Part shown: positions 4,757 to 54,600 of the stretch, piece by piece
How positions within the stretch are numbered: position 1 is the stretch's first letter
Layout of the letters: each line of letters begins with the position of its first letter
Origin: a phage
Assembly: GCA_024613925.1 (NCBI GenBank)
Contig: GCA_024613925.1_4713.1
DNA length: 64,000 bases
Direction: 5' to 3' (one strand)
Position numbers and translations under genes: made by a program
Notes under the pieces: model-generated
Databases searched by the model: none
What the model was told of the DNA's origin: nothing
What the model saw: the letters and a program-made list of their open reading frames with translations, nothing else

Positions 4757-5545
4757 TTAGAACGCTAAGCCATCAAAGGCTACGGACGGATCATCGTCGT
4801 CATTTGCGCTTGGCGCATCCCAACGGGTATCAGGGGCCGCTGAAGCCGAACTTGATGCGTTAGAGTTACCGTTGTACTGGCCGTTACCAGCATTACGGTT
4901 ACCGCCGCCGTTGTTATTGTTACGGTTATAGCTATTGTTGCCATTACTTACGCTACGGCTTTCACCGTCGAAATTGGTTGCGAGGATGCTCGGCAACACC
5001 GCACGATGAATACGTACAAATTCCAACGCACAGAGCGGAGAAACAACCCCGATCTGTAAAGGTTGACCGGACTCATCAACCAGAGCGTGGAAACGCGGTG
5101 GCTTGAATACGAATTGGATGTTCGGTTTTTGGTACGCGGTTACAGCGATATATACCGAACCATCATCGTTCTTACCAACCCATGTTGTACTTTCGGTAAC
5201 CTGTTTCTTCTTACCTGGGTTATTGCGATCGTCGATAACCTTTTCGTTCTTCATCGCAAAACGTTGGCCTGGTTTACCCTTAGCAACCTGCTCGAGGATC
5301 GCAAGCAGGTTATAGAACGCGTATGAGCTCATGCGTGCCCAAATGCTTTCAGCGCGACCCTGCTGGTCTTTACGACCAGTGTAAACCGTGATACGCGGTT
5401 GATTCTTAGCAACGCTAATTTTCAATGAGGGGATTGAATTACCGCCCTCAACCTTTTCGTCCGCCCACAGTTTCCAGTTGTTGTCGTCATACGCTGTAGG
5501 AATAATGTTTCCTTGTGGTTTACTGCCCGAATTCCAATTGCTCAT
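4757..5545 (-). CDS. hypothetical protein with Asn/Gly-rich low-complexity tail and acidic C-terminus (SSB-like tail?)
   Basis: 262-aa ORF; GAGG RBS 7 nt upstream; C-terminus ...NNNNGGGNRNAGNG...DDDDPSVAFDGLAF reminiscent of SSB linker plus acidic tip, fold not verified. Confidence 0.5.
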   Translation of the reverse strand: MSNWNSGSKPQGNIIPTAYDDNNWKLWADEKVEGGNSIPSLKISVAKNQPRITVYTGRKDQQGRAESIWARMSSYAFYNLLAILEQVAKGKPGQRFAMKNEKVIDDRNNPGKKKQVTESTTWVGKNDDGSVYIAVTAYQKPNIQFVFKPPRFHALVDESGQPLQIGVVSPLCALEFVRIHRAVLPSILATNFDGESRSVSNGNNSYNRNNNNGGGNRNAGNGQYNGNSNASSSASAAPDTRWDAPSANDDDDPSVAFDGLAF

Positions 5546-5618
5546 TTTCAGCCTCGTTACGTAGTGTGAATCAATTTCTGGTTCAGATGATAGTCAATAT
5601 TAGTTAAAAATTACAGCC

Positions 5619-6416
5619 TCAGCGGAACATGTCCAACAGAAAACGTTTTGCGAAGGGGTCACGTAACTGGTTGACACCAAAGCGTGTACGGTCTTCCGTT
5701 GTTAGTGGATTCCATTGACTCTGTTTCGCAAGATCTAATAGCATCCTTTTTATTTTCACCGGCCCACTGTTGAACTGTACGGCTTGGTCACCGAACGTTC
5801 CCAATGTCATCTTTGTAAATGGAAGGTTCGCAACCTCTGGACGATCCCCACCAGTAAGTTTGGTTGACCACTGATGTTTTCGTTTCAAAGTTCCGGTATG
5901 GCTTTCTACCAAAATAAGTTCACCAAAACCGGTTCTTGCCAACAAGTCAGAAACATAGTGCGTGGTGATATACGATGTCTTGGTTATCGCGGGTAATTTA
6001 CAATCCATCGATTCGATATTAGGGAGTCGATCTACAGACGCCATCAACCCACGATAAAGTGTAGCGAGTCCTTTTTGTTTTTCGGTGTGTGGCTCCTTAT
6101 GTATAGCGTGCGGATAAACACGCTTTATTGACGCATAGGTTGGCGCATATATCCGCAAGCGAATATGGGGAACGAGTTCATTCACCAGCTGCCTTAGCTG
6201 TAGTAACTCGTTTTGAAAATCCCCTGTTATCATCGATAATGGTAATTTATGTTGTTCAACGTCTTCAAAGCTTTCAACGAAATTGCGTGCTAAAGTACGC
6301 AGGTTGAACAACCAATCCATCGGTGTTTCTGGCTGTTGCTGTACGGCTGATAATGTTGCAGACGTACCTACCGATAAAGGATAATCACCTAACGTGCGGG
6401 CGTACATATTGCTCAT
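5619..6416 (-). CDS. hypothetical protein
   Basis: Track ORF starts at TTG (6452); internal ATG at 6416 has AAGGAG 9 nt upstream, taken as likely start. Confidence 0.5.
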   Translation of the reverse strand: MSNMYARTLGDYPLSVGTSATLSAVQQQPETPMDWLFNLRTLARNFVESFEDVEQHKLPLSMITGDFQNELLQLRQLVNELVPHIRLRIYAPTYASIKRVYPHAIHKEPHTEKQKGLATLYRGLMASVDRLPNIESMDCKLPAITKTSYITTHYVSDLLARTGFGELILVESHTGTLKRKHQWSTKLTGGDRPEVANLPFTKMTLGTFGDQAVQFNSGPVKIKRMLLDLAKQSQWNPLTTEDRTRFGVNQLRDPFAKRFLLDMFR

Positions 6417-6435
6417 ACCCCACAACTCCTTCTTA

Positions 6436-7578
6436 TCATGGCAACGTATCAAGCCAAGCAGAAACCTTTAAGGCATCAACGTTCGGGTATTTGTTACGAA
6501 TGCGTTCGACCAACAAACGCTTAACGTTGTCCTTTGTCAAGTCTCCACCTTTCTCGATAACGTTATTGACAAAACTGTTCTTTAATAGCGACTGGTTGTT
6601 CTTGGCGTCCGTTTTAATTGACCAGACAAAACCTGGATACAAAGAAGGGATAGAACGAAACGTTTTCGCCGCATCGTCTTCCTTATCACAGCGTATTCGG
6701 ATATGATCACCCTTCTTCAATGGAGCCAATTCCCGTTCCAACACGCGAATGATTTCATCTCCAACAAGACCATGCAGTTTTATCGTCTTGTAGACATCTG
6801 CTTTCTTGTTTTCAACAAATTCCCACTGGTCGTTAAACGTTTCCGTTAACATATAACGGAGGTATCCCTTCGGACCTTCTTCGCCGTGCGCCAAGCGACC
6901 AAATGAACCGCCAACCATGATACGTCCTTTCTGGGATTGTAAGTGGATATGTCCGCTCACAATCCATCCCTGGGTCTTCTCCACCATTGCGTTATACGCA
7001 TCGCTGCTATGAACACATGTTGCTTTTAACGCTTCTGGTGGAAGTTGATATTCAAACGCACCGTGCATCAGAATAAAGTCCGGCGATCCCTTCTCATCAA
7101 TAAGTCGGTTCACGGCCGACAACGTCACATCCGGGTCGTGGCTGTAGTTATCTGGAAGATAAAGTACTTTTAAACCAAAGTCTTCATCAACCATGCAGAG
7201 GTCATCGTAATAACGAACTTTCGCTCCTATCTCCATGACCTCGTTCTGTTCAACGAACCACTGACTTTGCTTCTGGTCGTGTAAATTGGTACCCTCAAGA
7301 AAGATCAATGTAATATCGTGTTTTCTCGCATACCGTAACAACCAGGTACCCCAGGCACGAACAGCAACCACGTCACTCGTCACAAATGTCGTAATACGAT
7401 CGAAGACATCGCCGCTGAACGTAATCACATCAAGCAGCGCAGGATCTTCTTTTGTAATGTAGTAACGTAGCTGACTAATCAGGTTTACTGTCGGCGTTTG
7501 ACGATGGATAAAGTGAATATCCGACAAGTTGATTCCACGTAATACCCCAGGCGTTTTATTTCGACTGAAGTCTCGCAT
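6436..7578 (-). CDS. calcineurin-like metallophosphoesterase (SbcD/Mre11-like nuclease or phosphatase)
   Basis: 380 aa; ordered motifs D-x-H (LSDIHFIH), GDxxD (FSGDVFDR), GxNxHD (EGTNLHD), H (LMHGAF), GHxH (SGHIHLQ) typical of metallophosphatase superfamily. Confidence 0.6.
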   Translation of the reverse strand: MRDFSRNKTPGVLRGINLSDIHFIHRQTPTVNLISQLRYYITKEDPALLDVITFSGDVFDRITTFVTSDVVAVRAWGTWLLRYARKHDITLIFLEGTNLHDQKQSQWFVEQNEVMEIGAKVRYYDDLCMVDEDFGLKVLYLPDNYSHDPDVTLSAVNRLIDEKGSPDFILMHGAFEYQLPPEALKATCVHSSDAYNAMVEKTQGWIVSGHIHLQSQKGRIMVGGSFGRLAHGEEGPKGYLRYMLTETFNDQWEFVENKKADVYKTIKLHGLVGDEIIRVLERELAPLKKGDHIRIRCDKEDDAAKTFRSIPSLYPGFVWSIKTDAKNNQSLLKNSFVNNVIEKGGDLTKDNVKRLLVERIRNKYPNVDALKVSAWLDTLP

Positions 7579-8360
7579 CAGAATTCCTCTAAGTTGCTGC
7601 TGCTAATAGTCCCCGTCGTAGACGGCACGTTTCTACTGCTTGCCGACGCTGTTGTTGAAGAAGTTCTGGCCAGATTCAATCCGTTTAATAACCCACGCTC
7701 TTTTACCGTACGACGTGAACCATCACGAACGTCGTAAAGGGGTACGTTATAATGGTCAAAAATCCGAAGCCATTGCACGTAATCAGCGACAACATGGTCT
7801 TTGCTTTCATTCGGGGCAAAGCGATCAAGCTGGTGGTCGACGTAAGCTTTAGCGCTTTCAGGATTGAAGTTATACTGTCGACGTGCTTTGTCCACCATCG
7901 CGAGGAAACATGTATTGGGGTCACGATTGATGTATGAACGCGTCCTGATAAAGATAGCCGGTACCGTAAACAGAACCTTGTTGTTATTCCCATCAGCAAC
8001 AATGTTAACGGCACGATGCGGTTGACCTGCTATCTTGCACCAATCGTGAACAATGGTACTGTTACTCAGCATCTCCGCGTATTCAGGATCCTGCGAAAAC
8101 ATTCCTGCGAACGGATACAAGAAATGTTTAACAAACAGCGATTCAGGCAGAATGTTGGGACGCGTCATCTCCTGTAAACCTTTTCGTAGAAGCTCGCTGT
8201 TGTCTACCAGCTCCTGCCACATATCCGGTCTTGTTTTCGGGATGGACGGGTCCTGAGCACGACGAATGCGTTCTTCTTCATTTACAACCACTACCCCAGC
8301 CGGATACCCCAATAAATCCGTTCCTTCGCTAACGTTGCTGTTAGTTTGGCGCGCCTTCAT
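7578..8360 (-). CDS. hypothetical protein
   Basis: 260-aa ORF in minus-strand gene array; start not verified. Confidence 0.45.
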   Translation of the reverse strand: MKARQTNSNVSEGTDLLGYPAGVVVVNEEERIRRAQDPSIPKTRPDMWQELVDNSELLRKGLQEMTRPNILPESLFVKHFLYPFAGMFSQDPEYAEMLSNSTIVHDWCKIAGQPHRAVNIVADGNNNKVLFTVPAIFIRTRSYINRDPNTCFLAMVDKARRQYNFNPESAKAYVDHQLDRFAPNESKDHVVADYVQWLRIFDHYNVPLYDVRDGSRRTVKERGLLNGLNLARTSSTTASASSRNVPSTTGTISSSNLEEF

Positions 8361-11448: not shown

Positions 11449-11685
11449 TTAGCAATGGTTGTTAGTTGCTTCTATTTCGTCAAGATACGGTTCTACGTCA
11501 TCGCCCTCCACGAATTCGTTGAACCAACAGTCAATGGTAGAAATAACCGGCGACTGGTGTTCACATTTCTTAGATACCTTAAAAGGTACGTTATTATCCA
11601 TCATACCGAGTTCGGGTCGAAAACGCCCGAAATGTTTCGCAGTCCAAATATCTGGGACGATATGGTTGTTCATCGTAGTGTTCAG
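11449..11685 (-). CDS. RNA polymerase beta-prime N-terminal fragment (non-virion RNAP candidate), proposed exon 3
   Basis: Translation LNTTMNNHIVP.. resembles beta-prime segment (A)LMMSTNNILSP downstream of NADFDGD; in-frame stop 3 codons upstream of the track ATG and no need for own start if spliced to mini-exon; G of track ATG proposed as intron terminal G. Confidence 0.4.
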   Translation of the reverse strand: MNTTMNNHIVPDIWTAKHFGRFRPELGMMDNNVPFKVSKKCEHQSPVISTIDCWFNEFVEGDDVEPYLDEIEATNNHC

Positions 11686-12028
11686 CATGAGTCGCTACCT
11701 CATACCCGCAGCTTTACCTGCAGCTTCCGGTGTTACCGGAATGACCAGAATACATCTTATCCATATTCCAAATGGAACGTAGGACTTCCGCGCTGGATCT
11801 CGCTTGAGACCACGTATTCGTTGAACGTTCTCCTGAACGGAGCTTCGCTGCTGATCGAACATTGTCACGTACGGTAGGCGTCCCCGAAGGGATTGTCATT
11901 GAAGCCGCGTACATCCGCTACCTTGTTTCTACCTTATCGGTTCCTCTTACGAGGCGTAGCGGCCTTAGCCCTTCCCAGCAATTCACGGAATCCAAGCTCT
12001 TCCTTTCGGAAGGCAGGGCCTATGATTA
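11686..12028 (-). ncRNA. candidate group I intron B (second of tandem pair) in beta-prime gene
   Basis: Minus-strand elements in canonical order: P GAAUUGCUGGGAAGGG (~11966-11990), Q AUCAGCAGCGAAGC (~11846-11859), R GUUCAACGAAUACG (~11811-11827), S AAGAUGUAUUCUGG (~11743-11760); P/Q and R/S complementary (UUGCUG/CAGCAG; GAAUAC/GUAUUC); P9-like hairpin UCCGG-UAACA-CCGGA; 5' splice site pairing (P1) not found. Confidence 0.45.
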
Positions 12029-12041
12029 AGCGTCACCGTCG
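12029..12041 (-). CDS. proposed 13-nt mini-exon encoding (F)DGDA of the beta-prime catalytic NADFDGD motif
   Basis: Minus-strand CGACGGUGACGCU lies immediately after a G that follows the intron A S element; joined to exon 1 (..AAC GCA GAU UU) it reads N-A-D-F-D-G-D-A in frame; followed immediately by UAA. Confidence 0.4.
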
Positions 12042-12419
12042 CTGTTTATCGACTATATCTTCATCCTCGTTGCGAGGAGTCTCCCGTTTTGGTCTGTGTT
12101 TAACAGAGCCTACTCTACTCGACATCGCGTCTTTCGATAGTCTGTGAGCACACATCTTAACGAACATTCGTGGATTCCTAAACAGGTGAATGTTCTTGTT
12201 GAGATGCTTCGCTGCGGATTATTCCCGTCCTACCTCTTTTACCATATCCAGTTCATTACGCTGGCCCTCATCTGTGTCACCACGATGAGTTGGTGTGTAG
12301 TCCGATTACAGAAACTTCCCGTCAATTAGAGAGTTTTAACTATGTTCCTGTTACCAGAAACCAGATCCCGACGGTATCAATAAATCAACGTAAGTTATTG
12401 AATTTATTGAAAAAAACTG
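12042..12419 (-). ncRNA. candidate group I intron A in beta-prime gene, inserted within the NADF/DGD codons
   Basis: Exon ends in U; internal guide-like GAUCUG (~12361-12369) can pair with exon end CAGAUU including U-G wobble; P AAUUGACGGGAAG (~12315-12329), Q AAUCCGCAGCGAAGC (~12207-12223), R GCUCACAGACUAUCG (~12134-12149), S AAGAUAUAGUCGAU (~12049-12066) in order; terminal G at 12042; 3' region after S is unusually short (no obvious P9). Confidence 0.45.
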
Positions 12420-13675
12420 AAATCTGCGTTATAACCTTTGAGGATCATCACGCTTAACCCGATGGTGTTATCCTGCGGATCGCGTTTAACCTTGGTGATT
12501 TCAAGACATTGGTTACTGCTTCGGTCAAGTGATGGGTTTCGAACAAAACCACACACAATCCCATCGAACGGTGTATCAGCAATAAGCTCATCGTGCAGCT
12601 CGCTCATCATCGGATGATAATTACGGACATGTTCCGCAACGAACGCACGTGCTGCTCTCGGTGAATACCCACGATGGAATAGCTTGGATTGGATATGTTC
12701 TTTATTGGTTAAAGTAAATGGTGCGTATGGGAAATGCAGATGATAATAACGATGGTTCGCTGTTATCGAACTGATTACGGTACGCGTGGTGAATGGATGT
12801 AATGTACCTAATATGTTTTTACGTGTGATACCTTTCTTCTTACCGATGAACTCATCGAAAATCGCCGCATGGTATTGCAGCAGCTTCAATTGCACTTTCG
12901 CCATCCAGTTTTCTTTCTTTCTGGCGCTCAAAGGTGTTGTTGGATGATAGATGCTATTCAACGTACCGATAGCATCGATCGCACCTTCCATTTTGCTATC
13001 CGCATAACGACCGGTTGGCGTATTCTCGATAACGAACATCATGGCCGCAGGAAAGCTGATATACTGGCTGAAGAACTTATCACGATGGATACGGATGAAT
13101 TCTCGTAGTGTGTCAACTTTCTCCGTGTTCTTCGGTCCACGTAACGTCGGTCCTTTATACAAGATCTCCATGATGCGATCGAAGTTCTGTATAAAACTAT
13201 TTACGCCACGACGTATCCCGAATACATCGAATTGCTGCTCCAGATAGTTCTTGAGTTCGATGGGTCGTTTTACATTTGGACGGTAACTGGCATCAATGAG
13301 CCACGTCATCGTTTCAAAGCTTTTGATATTCAACTCGCTTGCCAGCACGAGATGGACCAACGGGTTAATGAACGCATCGATTCCTTCAGGAACGCGCGCC
13401 CAAACCGTCGAACGAATCTCTTGTTCTGCTGGGTAGGTTACAACCGTTTTACAGTTTGGACACACCGTGCCGAGCAGCTCACCACGATTGTAGAAACCAC
13501 AACCACATTGTGGTGTGATATCCAACGTATCGCTGGAGTAAACACGGGTGATAAAACTGTTTAATTTCTTCTTCTCTTCGACGACTTTTGTATCGTAATC
13601 GTTCAACAAAATCGGCGTAAAAGGAAGTTCTGCGAGCTGTCTATCGAAACTCACGATATCGAGCATGATGGCCAT
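12420..13675 (-). CDS. RNA polymerase beta-prime N-terminal fragment (non-virion RNAP candidate), exon 1
   Basis: Zn-ribbon CGCG..x13..CPNC like beta-prime N-terminus; GITRKNILGTLHPFTTRTVIS matches beta-prime [21 protein letters not shown]; unspliced ORF ends ...GYNADF-SFFQ-stop, i.e. stops inside the catalytic motif. Confidence 0.6.
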
Positions 13676-51143: not shown

Positions 51144-51656
51144 CTGTATACCTATAAATACCAATCTCTTGGGCGAATTTAGTTCTTATTCAACATAATC
51201 GTACTATTACCAGAATAAGACTGAGATTAGATTGTTCAGATAAGGTCGTTAATCTTATCCCGGAGGCGACGATAGGCACATCACCTCCCGCTTGCGCTCT
51301 CACGCAAGAGCAGACTATATCACATCTCGTTTCAAACGGTGCTTCTTCAGCACCTCAACGAGAGTTCACTTCTTCCCAGCGCATCCAGCGCCATTCTCTT
51401 ATCCAAGGAGAATGCCTCACTCGAGGGGTACAGGGGGATGAATCCCTTAGTCGTTGAACCTTTACCTTAGAACGCTTCACAGCGATCCTTAGGTACTTGG
51501 CTGCGGATTGTCCTTAAGCTATTATCTGTTTTTATAACCATACCGTCTTTCTTTTCAGAATCCGTTTTGGTCGATAACAGCGATGGATGTCTTCGCAATT
51601 CAGTGAATCTCATCTACATGTCGCCACATAGACGGACCCTGCTATTAAAAGCGTTA
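51144..51656 (-). ncRNA. candidate group I intron in RNAP beta gene, inserted at conserved HDD/ANR motif
   Basis: 513 nt with no ORF; minus-strand P AAUUGCGAAGACAUCC (~51583-51602), Q AAUCCGCAGCC (~51495-51513), R GUUCAACGACUAAGG (~51436-51466), S GUGAUAUAGUCUG (~51305-51326) in order; UUGCG/CGCAG and GACUA/UAGUC complementary; exon 1 ends in U followed by UAA; G precedes exon 2; splice keeps frame (..DRDD-HNRM..); P1 pairing not identified. Confidence 0.5.
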
Positions 51657-54600
51657 ATCATCTCTATCAGCAGCAGGTACTGCAAGCGCCGACGTACTCA
51701 TTATTGACGAGCTACCATCCGTTTTCTCGTCGTAAGGTTTCGTTTCACCGTATACAGACACAATGTTTGCGTTAGGTGCGAGGTAAGCAGAAATACCTAC
51801 GTCCCCACTATCCTTCGTACCTTCGGATACAACACCAATGTCCGACTTGTCGTATTCACGATCGCGTGCGCGTCGAAGCGATGTCTTTGAACGACCCCCG
51901 ATACCGGTCATCGTCGCTTCTTCACCCTGCTTGATATCCAGCATCGGGTTGGTTTCATCGATTACGATGGAAGCGCTGTCGTCGAGAATCTGGTTCCAGA
52001 CGCTTACCGGACTGATTGAGATTTTCTGGCGGTTTCCTTGACTGCTGTTCTCATTCTGACGAATAGCGCCAACCAGATCCTTATACACCAACTCAGCGAA
52101 CTTATCGTACGTTTTAAAACGTTGGTAGTTCACATCGTTCGTGTTAGGTGCCCAATCATCCAGAAGCAGTTCGACGGCACGCAGTAACAACATGGCGAAA
52201 TCGGTAGGTTCTCCCATGTTCTGCAGCAACGTACGGCTTACCGGATCAACGAAAAGACGCTCCATGAGTTCAAGTTCGCGTAAATGGCGAACCTTAAGTC
52301 CAGCCCCATCGACAACGTTAAAATAGATATCTCGATTGTCAAAAGCGCCGCGAGCGTAACCAATGTAGTTACGGTATTCGTTAAACCCACCCAGCAACAA
52401 CGTCGTCATGCGATCGTCTTTACTGAAGATCAGACTTTCGTCGTCAAAGCTCACCGCGAATTCATCGGGTGCTAACCCCATACGAGAGCCGCGAGGTACC
52501 GTACGATAGTTCGCTTTAAGATGTTCTAATAACGGGGTAAGCCCACCCAGATAACTTAGAACAACACCGACCGGAATACGTACACCCATGAATTCAAGAT
52601 CGGCGGCTTCGATCGGCATCTTAGCCGCATTGATACCGAAGAAATCAGGGAACGTCCCTACAGGTGTTGGTGTTTGTCCTGACTGACAGATATAGAGCTG
52701 ATTGCGTTTATCGATTGCTAAGAATTCACCCAGCGTGTTACGCGCAAACGTCAGGAGTCCTTCGGCTAACTGTTCGTTGAACCGATCTTCCCCAATGAAC
52801 TCCGGCAATGTCTTTGTATCGAGACGTATATCCCAATCAGCAAATTGGATTTGGGTATAGTTGCGTGCAAGCACAGCGAAGTAATACGGAACTTTGACAG
52901 CTGGATCAAAGACGTTACCACGTTTCAACGTGGTTAAGGGTGAGGACTTATCGTAATACATCGCCGTAAGTTGACGTGTTAGCCAACGACCCGCATTATT
53001 AACGACACGCTCTGAACGTTTAACAAACACCTTACCGTAGGCGGTACTCAACGCAACTTCAGATGACGATACCTTTCTAATAGGTTTATCAACACGTTGT
53101 TTACGCATCCGGTATTTGATGCCGTTAACGACATAAATGCCGTCCTTACGAACCTTCGGCAACATCACCGGGAACGTGGTCGGGACACCGCCTACAGGAG
53201 CCAGTTTAATCGTGATGACTTGATAATCCCCCATCACGTCAACAACATCTTCAACTTTATATCCCGTGACAGGGTAACCTGCCTGCTGTACCGCAACGAC
53301 GGCAGCTGCGATGTCCTTTTGCATTACGTGTTCAACGTAATGTTTATCCCACACCGCAAGCGTCGATTTACACAGGCTCTTATCGACGATAACATCCGCT
53401 TCCGGCATAACCTTTGCAGGCGCTAATTTTGCGGCTTTTGGTTTAACTTCAACATACTCAGCAAGTGTTAATCCAGAACCGTCGGGTGCTTCGATTTCAT
53501 GGATGGCGTCAGCATTACGCATCGCTGCTTTATATTGGACACCGCTTAACTGACCCGCATCCGCCAGATCGCTCGCGCGTACCAACACCGCATCCGATAA
53601 CGACTGAATATATTCGCCATGCGTTTTCGGTAACGTTGCCGCGTCAAAGACATCAACCTTTTCTTCTTCGGTATCGTCGGTAACGACTTCGAAGAGATCG
53701 TCGGTAATGTCCTGATCTTCATCGGGCTGGAAATCTGGTTGTACTTCTACCCCGGGTACTTCACGGACATCTTCGAACGAGCGTTCTACAATGGCGTTCC
53801 ACGCATCGGCATCATCGTCTTCATCCGACCCACCGACCAACTCCGCTTCTAACTCGTCGGGATCAAGAACGGTAGCGAGATCCTCACCGTTAGGAAGCAC
53901 GACGTCGCGATCATCATACTCCGCATCCGGGCTGTCCGCAAGAATATCTCGCTCTTGACGAAGAACCTGTTCCTCTTCTTGTTTCTGTTCTTCTTCATTC
54001 GCGCTCTGCGACCACAGACGTGTTACCGCCATCATCCAACGACGTTGGAAGGTTTCAAGTGTCGTTTTATCGAGTTCTTCCCCTTCCTTCACAAGTCCGG
54101 TACGCCATTCTTCCAGCAGGCCGAGATTCAGCGTAAAGAAGTACACACCGTCTGTAAATACGATGTTAAGCTTATCCAGCGTGGCTCTGTCTAACGAAGC
54201 CATCGTGCTGTTCTCACGATCGGTTCCCAACCAGCGGAAGAAGTCAAAGAACGACAGCTCCTCCGGTGTGGCGAAATTCATGAGGTTATTACGGGTCGGT
54301 GCCTGTTGCGTGGTACGCATCAACGAAATCTTCGGCAATGTTGACGGTATACGGAACAACAAAAAGTGTTGGCGATCGCTTTGCTGTGCGATTTCGTTGG
54401 CTTTCGACCAAATTGTTTTACGTACGTTGAACCATTCATCATACCAACGGGTGAGCGTTGGACGATAAATGTACATGTGGTTAAGATGCGCGTAGTTAGC
54501 AACGATCTGAGCGTTGATGTTTTTCTCCACCGTGCTTAGATCGGTAACCAAACGAAAACGACGATGTGATGCACGATAATCCAATTTCGCTCGTGGGAGT

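Follow-up and report, generated by a model that had tools for sequence, protein, structure and literature searches.

Two predicted group I introns 13 nucleotides apart within the catalytic-motif codons of an RNA polymerase beta' gene in a Goslar-like jumbo phage

Introduction

Group I introns have been described in the multisubunit RNA polymerase (RNAP) genes of nucleus-forming jumbo phages. The intron at gp210 of phage PhiPA3 lies in the virion RNAP beta gene (gp211/gp209), after two conserved aspartates, and has a role in competition between phages (Birkholz et al. 2024, PMC11620839). The non-virion RNAP (nvRNAP) of PhiPA3 has also been described as split by a self-splicing intron, at gp65-66. 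The phiKZ genes gp71/gp73 are split in the same way. Here we analyze a 64,000-nucleotide (nt) stretch of phage DNA (GenBank assembly GCA_024613925.1, contig GCA_024613925.1_4713.1; hereafter the window), in which an nvRNAP beta' gene is interrupted within the codons of its Mg-binding motif, NADFDGD. A preliminary description of this DNA, made from the letters alone, had proposed two tandem group I introns flanking a 13-nt mini-exon at this point.

Two features of that proposal have precedents elsewhere. Several group I introns can occupy one phage gene: an excerpt of PMC11878797 reports two or three of them in the DNA polymerase and terminase genes of Bastillevirinae, with exon skipping as a by-product. 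Very short exons between group I introns occur in fungal and placozoan mitochondria, where they measure 3 nt or even 1 nt and are routinely missed by gene finders (PMC8971849, citing Cummings 1990, Osigus 2017).

Results

We identified the interrupted gene, on the minus strand at 13675-11449, as that of the beta'-N subunit of nvRNAP, a homologue of phiKZ gp55. The 2.5-kb region surrounding the introns is 98.1% identical (blastn) to Escherichia phage vB_EcoM_Goslar, a nucleus-forming jumbo phage whose host is E. coli, and residues 1-419, encoded by exon 1, are 100% identical to Goslar (tblastn). As the preliminary description observed, the unspliced open reading frame (ORF) of 423 amino acids (aa; 13675-12404) stops inside the motif, terminating at ...GYNADF-SFFQ. 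We consider it very likely that two independent group I introns, A and B, lie 13 nt apart inside the NADFDGD codons, and that double splicing yields a 497-aa beta'-N protein. Alignments to the Rfam group I model (RF00028), covariation and a colinear spliced product all support the proposed pair of introns around a mini-exon, and the sequence features described here are far beyond chance.

Joined to the GAUUU that ends exon 1 at 12420, the mini-exon (12041-12029) reads F-D-G-D-A, and removal of both introns restores a frame that is colinear with uninterrupted homologues. The double-spliced RNA would read ...GCA GAU UU/C GAC GGU GAC GCU/AUG AAC AAC... (slashes mark junctions), with the ligated junctions GCAGAUUU^CGACGGUGACGCU^AUGAACAACC, or GAUUU^CGACGGUGACGCU^AUGAAC in short form. 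The predicted 497-aa product contains NADFDGDAMNNH, runs ...GYNADFDGDAMNNHIVPD... across the motif and would release the junction-spanning tryptic peptide GYNADFDGDAMNNHIVPDIWTAK. In a profile alignment, it matches phiKZ gp55 (PDB 7OGP_A; E 1.6e-73, residues 21-480) without a break through the motif, exon 3 being colinear with gp55 residues ~443-495. The Pfam domain PF00623 (RNA_pol_Rpb1_2) is found at residues 371-428 of the spliced product, spanning both junctions, with 36.9 bits against a cutoff of 25.3; this call is absent from interrupted database ORFs and present on most uninterrupted ones. The beta'-N protein is encoded in one uninterrupted piece in 251 phage records. The window gene thus shows gp55 homology, the Rpb1 domain 2 signature, linkage to the chimallin gene (chmA) and NADFDGD, the last only after splicing.

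Each exon end is followed by an in-frame stop, as had been noted: a UAA lies five codons into intron A, and at the start of intron B the reading is directly GCU-UAA. Failed RNAs would meet a stop at once, with the unspliced form ending in SFFQ, removal of A and retention of B giving DGDA-UAA, and joining of the 5' site of A to the 3' site of B giving GAU UUA UGA. Coordinates of all features are collected in Table 1.

Table 1. Features of the interrupted beta'-N gene and its surroundings in the window
Feature	Position	Strand	Description
chimallin (chmA) ORF	15663-13768	minus	Pfam PF25677; directly upstream of the interrupted RNAP gene
Exon 1	12420..13675	minus	ends ...AAC GCA GAU UU (N A D F-); from ORF list and 7OGP_A alignment
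Intron A	12042..12419	minus	group I, 378 nt, omega-G at 12042; RF00028 match
Intron A internal guide	12362..12375	minus	ACCGUCG-GGAUCUG; 7+7 pairs, all canonical
Goslar insertion point	12043..12046	minus	1065 nt with 336-aa HNH_3/NUMOD1 ORF; absent from the window
Mini-exon	12029..12041	minus	CGACGGUGACGCU (= CGACGGTGACGCT), 13 nt; (UU)C GAC GGU GAC GCU = F D G D A
Intron B	11674..12028	minus	group I, 355 nt, omega-G at 11674; covariation, RNAalifold, partial RF00028
Intron B helices	P1 12031-12027/12022-18; P2; P3 11990-84/11792-86; P4 11980-75/11854-49	minus	hand-drawn
Intron B helices, continued	P5 with five-helix extension; P6; P7 11819-14/11753-48; P7.1; P8; P9; P9.1; P9.2 11704-11686	minus	hand-drawn
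Intron B 3' tail	11674..11685	minus	CUGAACACUACG, 12 nt; LNTT of the preliminary description; intronic
Exon 3	11449..11673	minus	AUG AAC AAC CAU... = M N N H I V P D I W ... to stop

Intron A aligns with RF00028 over its full length (12367-12042, model positions 1-253; 44.6 bits, E 9e-10 in E-value mode in a 1.4-kb search). Its core helices P3, P4-P6, P7 and P8 occur in canonical order; P7 and P3' are separated by two additional hairpins that resemble P7.1/P7.2, and P9 is all but missing. The P1 drawn for this intron in the preliminary description is real: GGAUCUG of the internal guide pairs with CAGAUUU at the end of exon 1 over 7 base pairs (bp), with a U.G at the splice site in which the guide contributes G12368. 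The pairing extends into a 7-bp P10 between ACCGUCG and CGACGGU, the first 7 nt of the mini-exon, and the intron ends in the terminal G12042. Goslar carries the synonymous exon changes GCA GAU to GCC GAC, and its guide follows them, from GGAUCUG to GAGUCGG (P1 with CCGACUU), giving two compensatory pairs. The insertion point is fixed because an allele without intron A, in the metagenomic haplotype L004 described below, reads GAC TTT GAC GGT GAT GCC unbroken (..AACGCTGACTTTGACGGTGATGCC..).

In Goslar, intron A also carries an insertion just before its terminal G, in which a 14-bp stem (UUACGUGCACCGAC/GUCGGUGCACGUAA) encloses an HNH ORF (Pfam HNH_3 1.9e-7, NUMOD1 4.4e-5). The ORF list shows no HNH, GIY-YIG or LAGLIDADG endonuclease ORF in introns A and B of the window, and by this measure neither is classed as a mobile intron.

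RF00028 barely detects intron B (partial alignment 11990-11786, 16.7 bits, E 0.2), so we used comparative variants for this intron. These came from IMG/VR contigs reached through a protein search; blastn of each intron against the phage collection returned only Goslar and short core matches. On a five-sequence alignment, 98% of the cells in the intron B structure are paired, and 31 of its 99 pairs are compensatory. Slid copies of the structure gave one or two compensatory pairs, and none of 500 shuffles reached the observed value. Three of the compensatory pairs fall in the P7 pseudoknot (GAAUAC/GUAUUC versus GAUCAU/AUGAUC). De novo folding with RNAalifold recovered every intron B helix except this pseudoknot. 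P1 is formed by GCU/GGC plus two intron pairs, with G12020 as its guide G and two of the five pairs covarying, and P10 by AUGA/UCAU (4 bp; CAU/AUG in L004), with G11674 as the terminal G. Single-sequence minimum free energy folds of the two introns were marginal against shuffles (z -1.95 and -2.16), were dominated by long-range pairs and were useful for P1 of intron A only.

Four Goslar-like haplotypes combine introns differently around one 497-aa protein: the window (A+B), Goslar (A with its HNH insertion, then B), L005 (IMGVR_UViG_3300045988_173921, 5244-6365; C+A+B) and L004 (IMGVR_UViG_3300011560_000001, 5252-5976; B'+B). The window, L004 and L005 proteins are identical, and Goslar differs at one residue. 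The window lacks the B' and C introns and L004 lacks A, so that natural alleles define the junctions. The L004 copy of intron B is 85% identical to that of the window, and B' is a 74% identical paralogue of B inserted 18 nt upstream, between AAC GCT and GAC TTT. The mini-exon bases form part of an unbroken 18-nt exon in L004. In L005, intron C is inserted after AAA GGG T. A second mini-exon, ATAATGCAGATTT, separates it from intron A, after which come the first mini-exon and intron B; this haplotype therefore holds three tandem introns and two 13-nt mini-exons within 12 codons.

Several further observations concern the history of these haplotypes. Introns B and B', 18 nt apart, each come right after an Ala codon, GCY, with which one and the same guide, GGC, pairs; this may point to transposition of an intron into a nearby site. 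Identity between L004 and the window is 97.6% in exon 1 and 91% downstream of the introns, a drop that may reflect recombination or a co-conversion tract. The core of intron C (L005 5244-5608) is ~60% identical to B, near the shuffled baseline of 52%, and its last ~30 nt are identical to L004 B' (5252-5601). Intron C looks like a chimera, possibly from recombination between neighbouring introns. The read-through ORF of the L005 type (P0001, 449 aa) represents 159 member sequences, so the C+A+B haplotype appears common in public assemblies.

Our analysis departs from the preliminary description at the 3' end of intron B. That description had placed the junction at 11686/11685, with exon 3 starting at CUG AAC ACU ACG and a 501-aa product carrying LNTT after DGDA, which predicts the RNA GACGCU^CUGAACACUACG and the peptide ...DGDALNTTMNNH.... 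In its favour, the 12 nt contain no stop and keep the frame, G11686 could act as the terminal G, and HMMER accepts the insert as a 4-residue gap. However, G11686 belongs to the pair that closes P9.2, and the insert is present in 0 of ~50 uninterrupted homologues, all of which are colinear with the 497-aa product; the closest of them read NADFDGDA-MNHH (P0002, 65% identity) and NADFDGDE-MNNH (P0003, 62%). Introns of the B family all finish with the same hairpin, whose loop is GUAGCGA, and then a tail of 12-13 nt with G as its last nucleotide: CUGAACACUACG, UUGAAGAUAUUG, CUGAAGAUACGUG and CUGAAGAUUUAG. The tail consensus, YUGRAMAYNNNG with the splice site directly after it, holds in five B-family introns (window 11674-11685; L004 5965-5976 and 5589-5601; L005 5597-5608; and, in a distant chimallivirus, L014 5585-5596). 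In B' the tail is 13 nt long and therefore non-coding. When the tail of intron C is read as exon, a conserved Y is replaced by five unrelated residues and colinearity is lost. Because the tail is intronic in B' and C, CUGAACACUACG in the window is by homology intronic too.

The guide and the haplotypes point the same way. UCAU-A-GGC of intron B pairs with GCU before the intron and with AUGA after it, not with CUGA. Under the LNTT version, the L004 protein would carry LKIL in place of LNTT; only the junction 11674/11673 lets the four haplotypes encode the same protein (497/497 residues in L004 and L005, 496/497 in Goslar). We place intron B at 12028-11674 and the start of exon 3 at 11673, with a predicted product of 497 aa, and consider the LNTT version very unlikely. 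The identification as RNAP beta' with an intact NADFDGD after splicing held up, as did the colinearity with intron-less homologues, but the exon 3 start and the ~501-aa length gave way. The universal RNAP beta' motif is NADFDGDQMAVH, to which the predicted 497-aa product is closer than the LNTT version would be. As a separate observation, the tail of B-family introns is single-stranded and resembles the group I J8/7 consensus UGAAGAUAU; candidate partners for it are the P6 loop GUUCAG, the conserved CUUCA of the P5 extension and GGUG of the mini-exon (an RNAalifold proposal).

We weighed three further accounts of the interruption as a whole. The GenBank/RefSeq records of Goslar list a 423-aa 'RNA polymerase beta subunit', one Intron_gpI noncoding RNA (intron A), an HNH/NUMOD1 protein and, as its own entry, a 79-aa hypothetical protein that corresponds to exon 3. 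Taken at face value, this annotation makes the 423-aa and 79-aa ORFs separate polypeptides, with the intervening RNA non-coding or a remnant of decayed introns, and jumbo-phage RNAP subunits are indeed naturally split. Yet the three catalytic aspartates would be missing from a 423-aa polypeptide, and no DGD-containing piece turned up elsewhere; the intron structure is kept by compensatory change, the guide pairing with exon 1 follows synonymous changes, and the 251 phage records carry the protein whole. We regard separate polypeptides as highly improbable. Even less weight attaches to a composite element, be it a twintron or one large intron (12419-11674), that is removed whole without retention of the 13 nt, because joining GAUUU to AUGAAC gives GAU UUA UGA, a stop, with loss of the DGD triad. 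The P10 guide of intron A is a perfect match for the mini-exon and none for exon 3, and L004 has the same 13 nt inside an ordinary exon. Exon skipping by group I introns is reportedly known from phage Twort, in a gene with three introns (going by the title of Landthaler & Shub 1999 only), and a skipped RNA may arise here as a minor by-product. The third account holds that one intron, most likely B, no longer self-splices and needs a protein cofactor, or that the gene is defective in this phage. The low Rfam score of intron B and its short P1 and P10 speak for this, but all four haplotypes retain the intron, its many compensatory substitutions indicate selection on its fold, and nvRNAP belongs to the conserved chimallivirus core. 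We judge such impairment unlikely, and dependence on a cofactor would leave the gene model unchanged. Ribosomal bypassing and an intein were also considered and rejected: no ORF resembles an intein, and the RNA between the exons folds into ribozymes.

Some points weigh against the two-intron reading itself. Its support is computational, with splicing deduced from sequence: anatomy, homology, covariation and colinearity are computed, and from them we infer self-splicing, independence of splicing order and a homing origin. Both introns score under the RF00028 gathering threshold of 50 bits (44.6 and 16.7), which is a database cutoff and not a biological criterion. A whole-window Rfam scan at gathering lists neither A nor B, its sole match being a third intron at 51658-51291. 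Their relatives fall under the same threshold (L005 A 46.5, L005 C 30.3, L004 B 28 and L004 B' 26.4 bits, the two L004 introns aligning full-length). P1 of intron B has three exon pairs (plus two intron pairs) and its P10 four pairs, and the L004 copy of intron B has C-G, not the canonical U.G, at the splice site. Only three of the sequences behind the covariation are truly divergent (85% and 74% identity), and one of these three served to draw the structure. Neither window intron has an endonuclease gene, so any present mobility is hypothetical.

Interruption of this motif extends beyond Goslar-like phages. Many metagenomic homologue ORFs stop inside NADFDGD, and we resolved a sample of these. 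Single RF00028 introns, often with HNH ORFs, split the motif between N and A (KpGz_1), D and F (L015), D and G (L009), and G and D (pEa_SNUABM_54, L012, L013); further sites are GGGU/AU, GCU/GAC, UU/C and GCY/AUG. Placing all sites by colinearity with uninterrupted homologues, we infer eight nucleotide-level insertion sites within ~30 nt of the motif across chimalliviruses. In the distant chimallivirus L014 (ena ERZ27249479 k141_82391), whose best-matching homologue has ~45% identity over exon 1, two tandem introns of 54.8 and 68.3 bits, both above gathering, flank the 12-nt mini-exon GAT TTC GAC GGT. This pair is independent of the Goslar-like pair, and the tandem arrangement is therefore recurrent and not unique. 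The word 'unusual' in the preliminary description was thus too strong, since chimalliviruses commonly carry introns in this motif and tandem pairs occur repeatedly. The short metagenomic contigs L008, L009 and L011 end before the downstream exon and are uninformative on tandem arrangement.

Three neighbouring features are worth recording. Two genes downstream of the tandem-intron beta' gene of L014 lies a TnpB/IS605-type ORF (7019-8251; OrfB_IS605, Cas12f1-like_TNB). In L015, a NUMOD1-like ORF (5406-6413) lies upstream of, and slightly overlaps, the ribozyme core (6378-6699, Rfam), which puts the endonuclease gene in the 5' part of the intron, unlike in Goslar intron A, where it sits in the 3' tail. 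The third intron of the window (51291-51658, minus strand, approximate ends; RF00028 56.2 bits, above gathering) splits an RNAP beta subunit gene. The ORFs that flank it, 54863-51654 (1069 aa) and 51164-50034 (376 aa), cover PHROG 3148 positions 2-1050 and 1055-1420; the upstream ORF ends ...AADRDD, and the intron contains no endonuclease ORF. Its site looks like the type of the PhiPA3 gp210 intron site, after two conserved aspartates.

Discussion

We propose that each ribozyme would excise itself by the usual guanosine-initiated two-step transesterification. The guide of intron A would hold the end of exon 1 next to the opening 7 nt of the mini-exon. In intron B, GGC would hold GCU of the mini-exon in a short P1, and UCAU would hold AUGA at the start of exon 3. 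The two introns would in this way share the mini-exon, with 7 nt given to P10 of A, a 3-nt spacer, and 3 nt given to P1 of B. Because the guides use different parts of the mini-exon, the folds need not compete, and either splicing order should work. Unspliced, half-spliced and skipped RNAs would yield harmless stubs through the immediate stops. The mechanism is ordinary; the architecture is notable. The earlier suggestion that the arrangement ties RNAP activity to splicing holds in the sense in which it applies to any intron in an essential gene, and in no further sense.

As to origin, mobile introns and homing endonucleases would accumulate in the active-site codons of nucleus-forming jumbo phages, and the double-intron arrangement would arise because this ultra-conserved stretch is a favoured target for them. 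We also entertain a more tentative idea, which we think could be right but probably is not: that the cluster is an active battleground, in which endonuclease-less introns hop locally and stacked introns form an immunity array against the homing nucleases of competitors. The eight sites, the variable combinations of two or three introns and the B/B' paralogy suggest hopping by reverse splicing or ectopic homing. Each occupied site would destroy the target of a competitor phage's homing nuclease in co-infection. If true, this would extend the interference-competition principle shown for PhiPA3 gp210.

The finding corrects the annotation of a model phage and opens a question of competition and transposition. 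The corrected Goslar gene model has three exons encoding 497 aa, in place of a 423-aa protein without its catalytic aspartates and an unrelated 79-aa hypothetical protein, and the HNH gene that appears free-standing in current records belongs to intron A. This model bears on proteomics, structure prediction and genetics of Goslar-like phages. Covariance-model thresholds miss introns such as B (16.7 bits), so mini-exons are probably under-annotated in phage genomes. Two predicted self-splicing ribozymes, and three in one haplotype, that lie 13 nt apart with guides sharing a mini-exon bear on the limits of tandem ribozymes, and they offer a natural system for folding interference and splice-site choice between neighbouring ribozymes. 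The chimallivirus RNAP Mg-binding motif emerges as a dense, polymorphic landing pad for mobile introns, which links it to the finding that intron endonucleases decide competition between nucleus-forming phages.

In the literature searched, which was incomplete, nothing was found on the Goslar beta' double intron, on introns in NADFDGD codons or on phage or bacterial mini-exons. The elements themselves are members of a known family and involve no new mechanism. Subgroup IA phage introns include T4 td, nrdB and sunY. Like RF00028 and subgroup IA introns, A and B have a P1-P9 core, a P3/P7 pseudoknot, one or more extra hairpins between P7 and P3', a U.G 5' site and a terminal G. They differ in scoring below gathering, in the five-helix P5 extension and 12-nt single-stranded 3' tail of B, and in the near absence of P9 from A.

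Among described systems, the PhiPA3 gp210 intron is likewise of group I and interrupts a multisubunit RNAP gene of a chimallivirus at conserved aspartate codons, and both it and Goslar intron A carry an HNH endonuclease, gp210 being a nicking homing endonuclease. It differs in affecting the virion beta subunit and in standing alone, without a mini-exon; both its splicing and its homing have been tested experimentally, whereas the window introns are predictions without an endonuclease. PhiPA3 gp65-66 shares with our locus an intron in an nvRNAP subunit gene of a nucleus-forming phage, within a chmA-linked gene block, but involves another subunit and a single intron outside NADFDGD. The Bastillevirinae genes resemble ours in that more than one independent group I intron interrupts an essential phage gene; the excerpt of that source does not mention exons this short, whereas here introns stand 12-18 nt apart, with up to three in 12 codons. 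The mitochondrial mini-exons, unlike ours, belong to organellar genomes in which splicing is often protein-assisted. Set against these systems, what is new is the stacking of introns at 12-18 nt inside an active-site motif, the polymorphism of that stacking and the B/B' paralogy.

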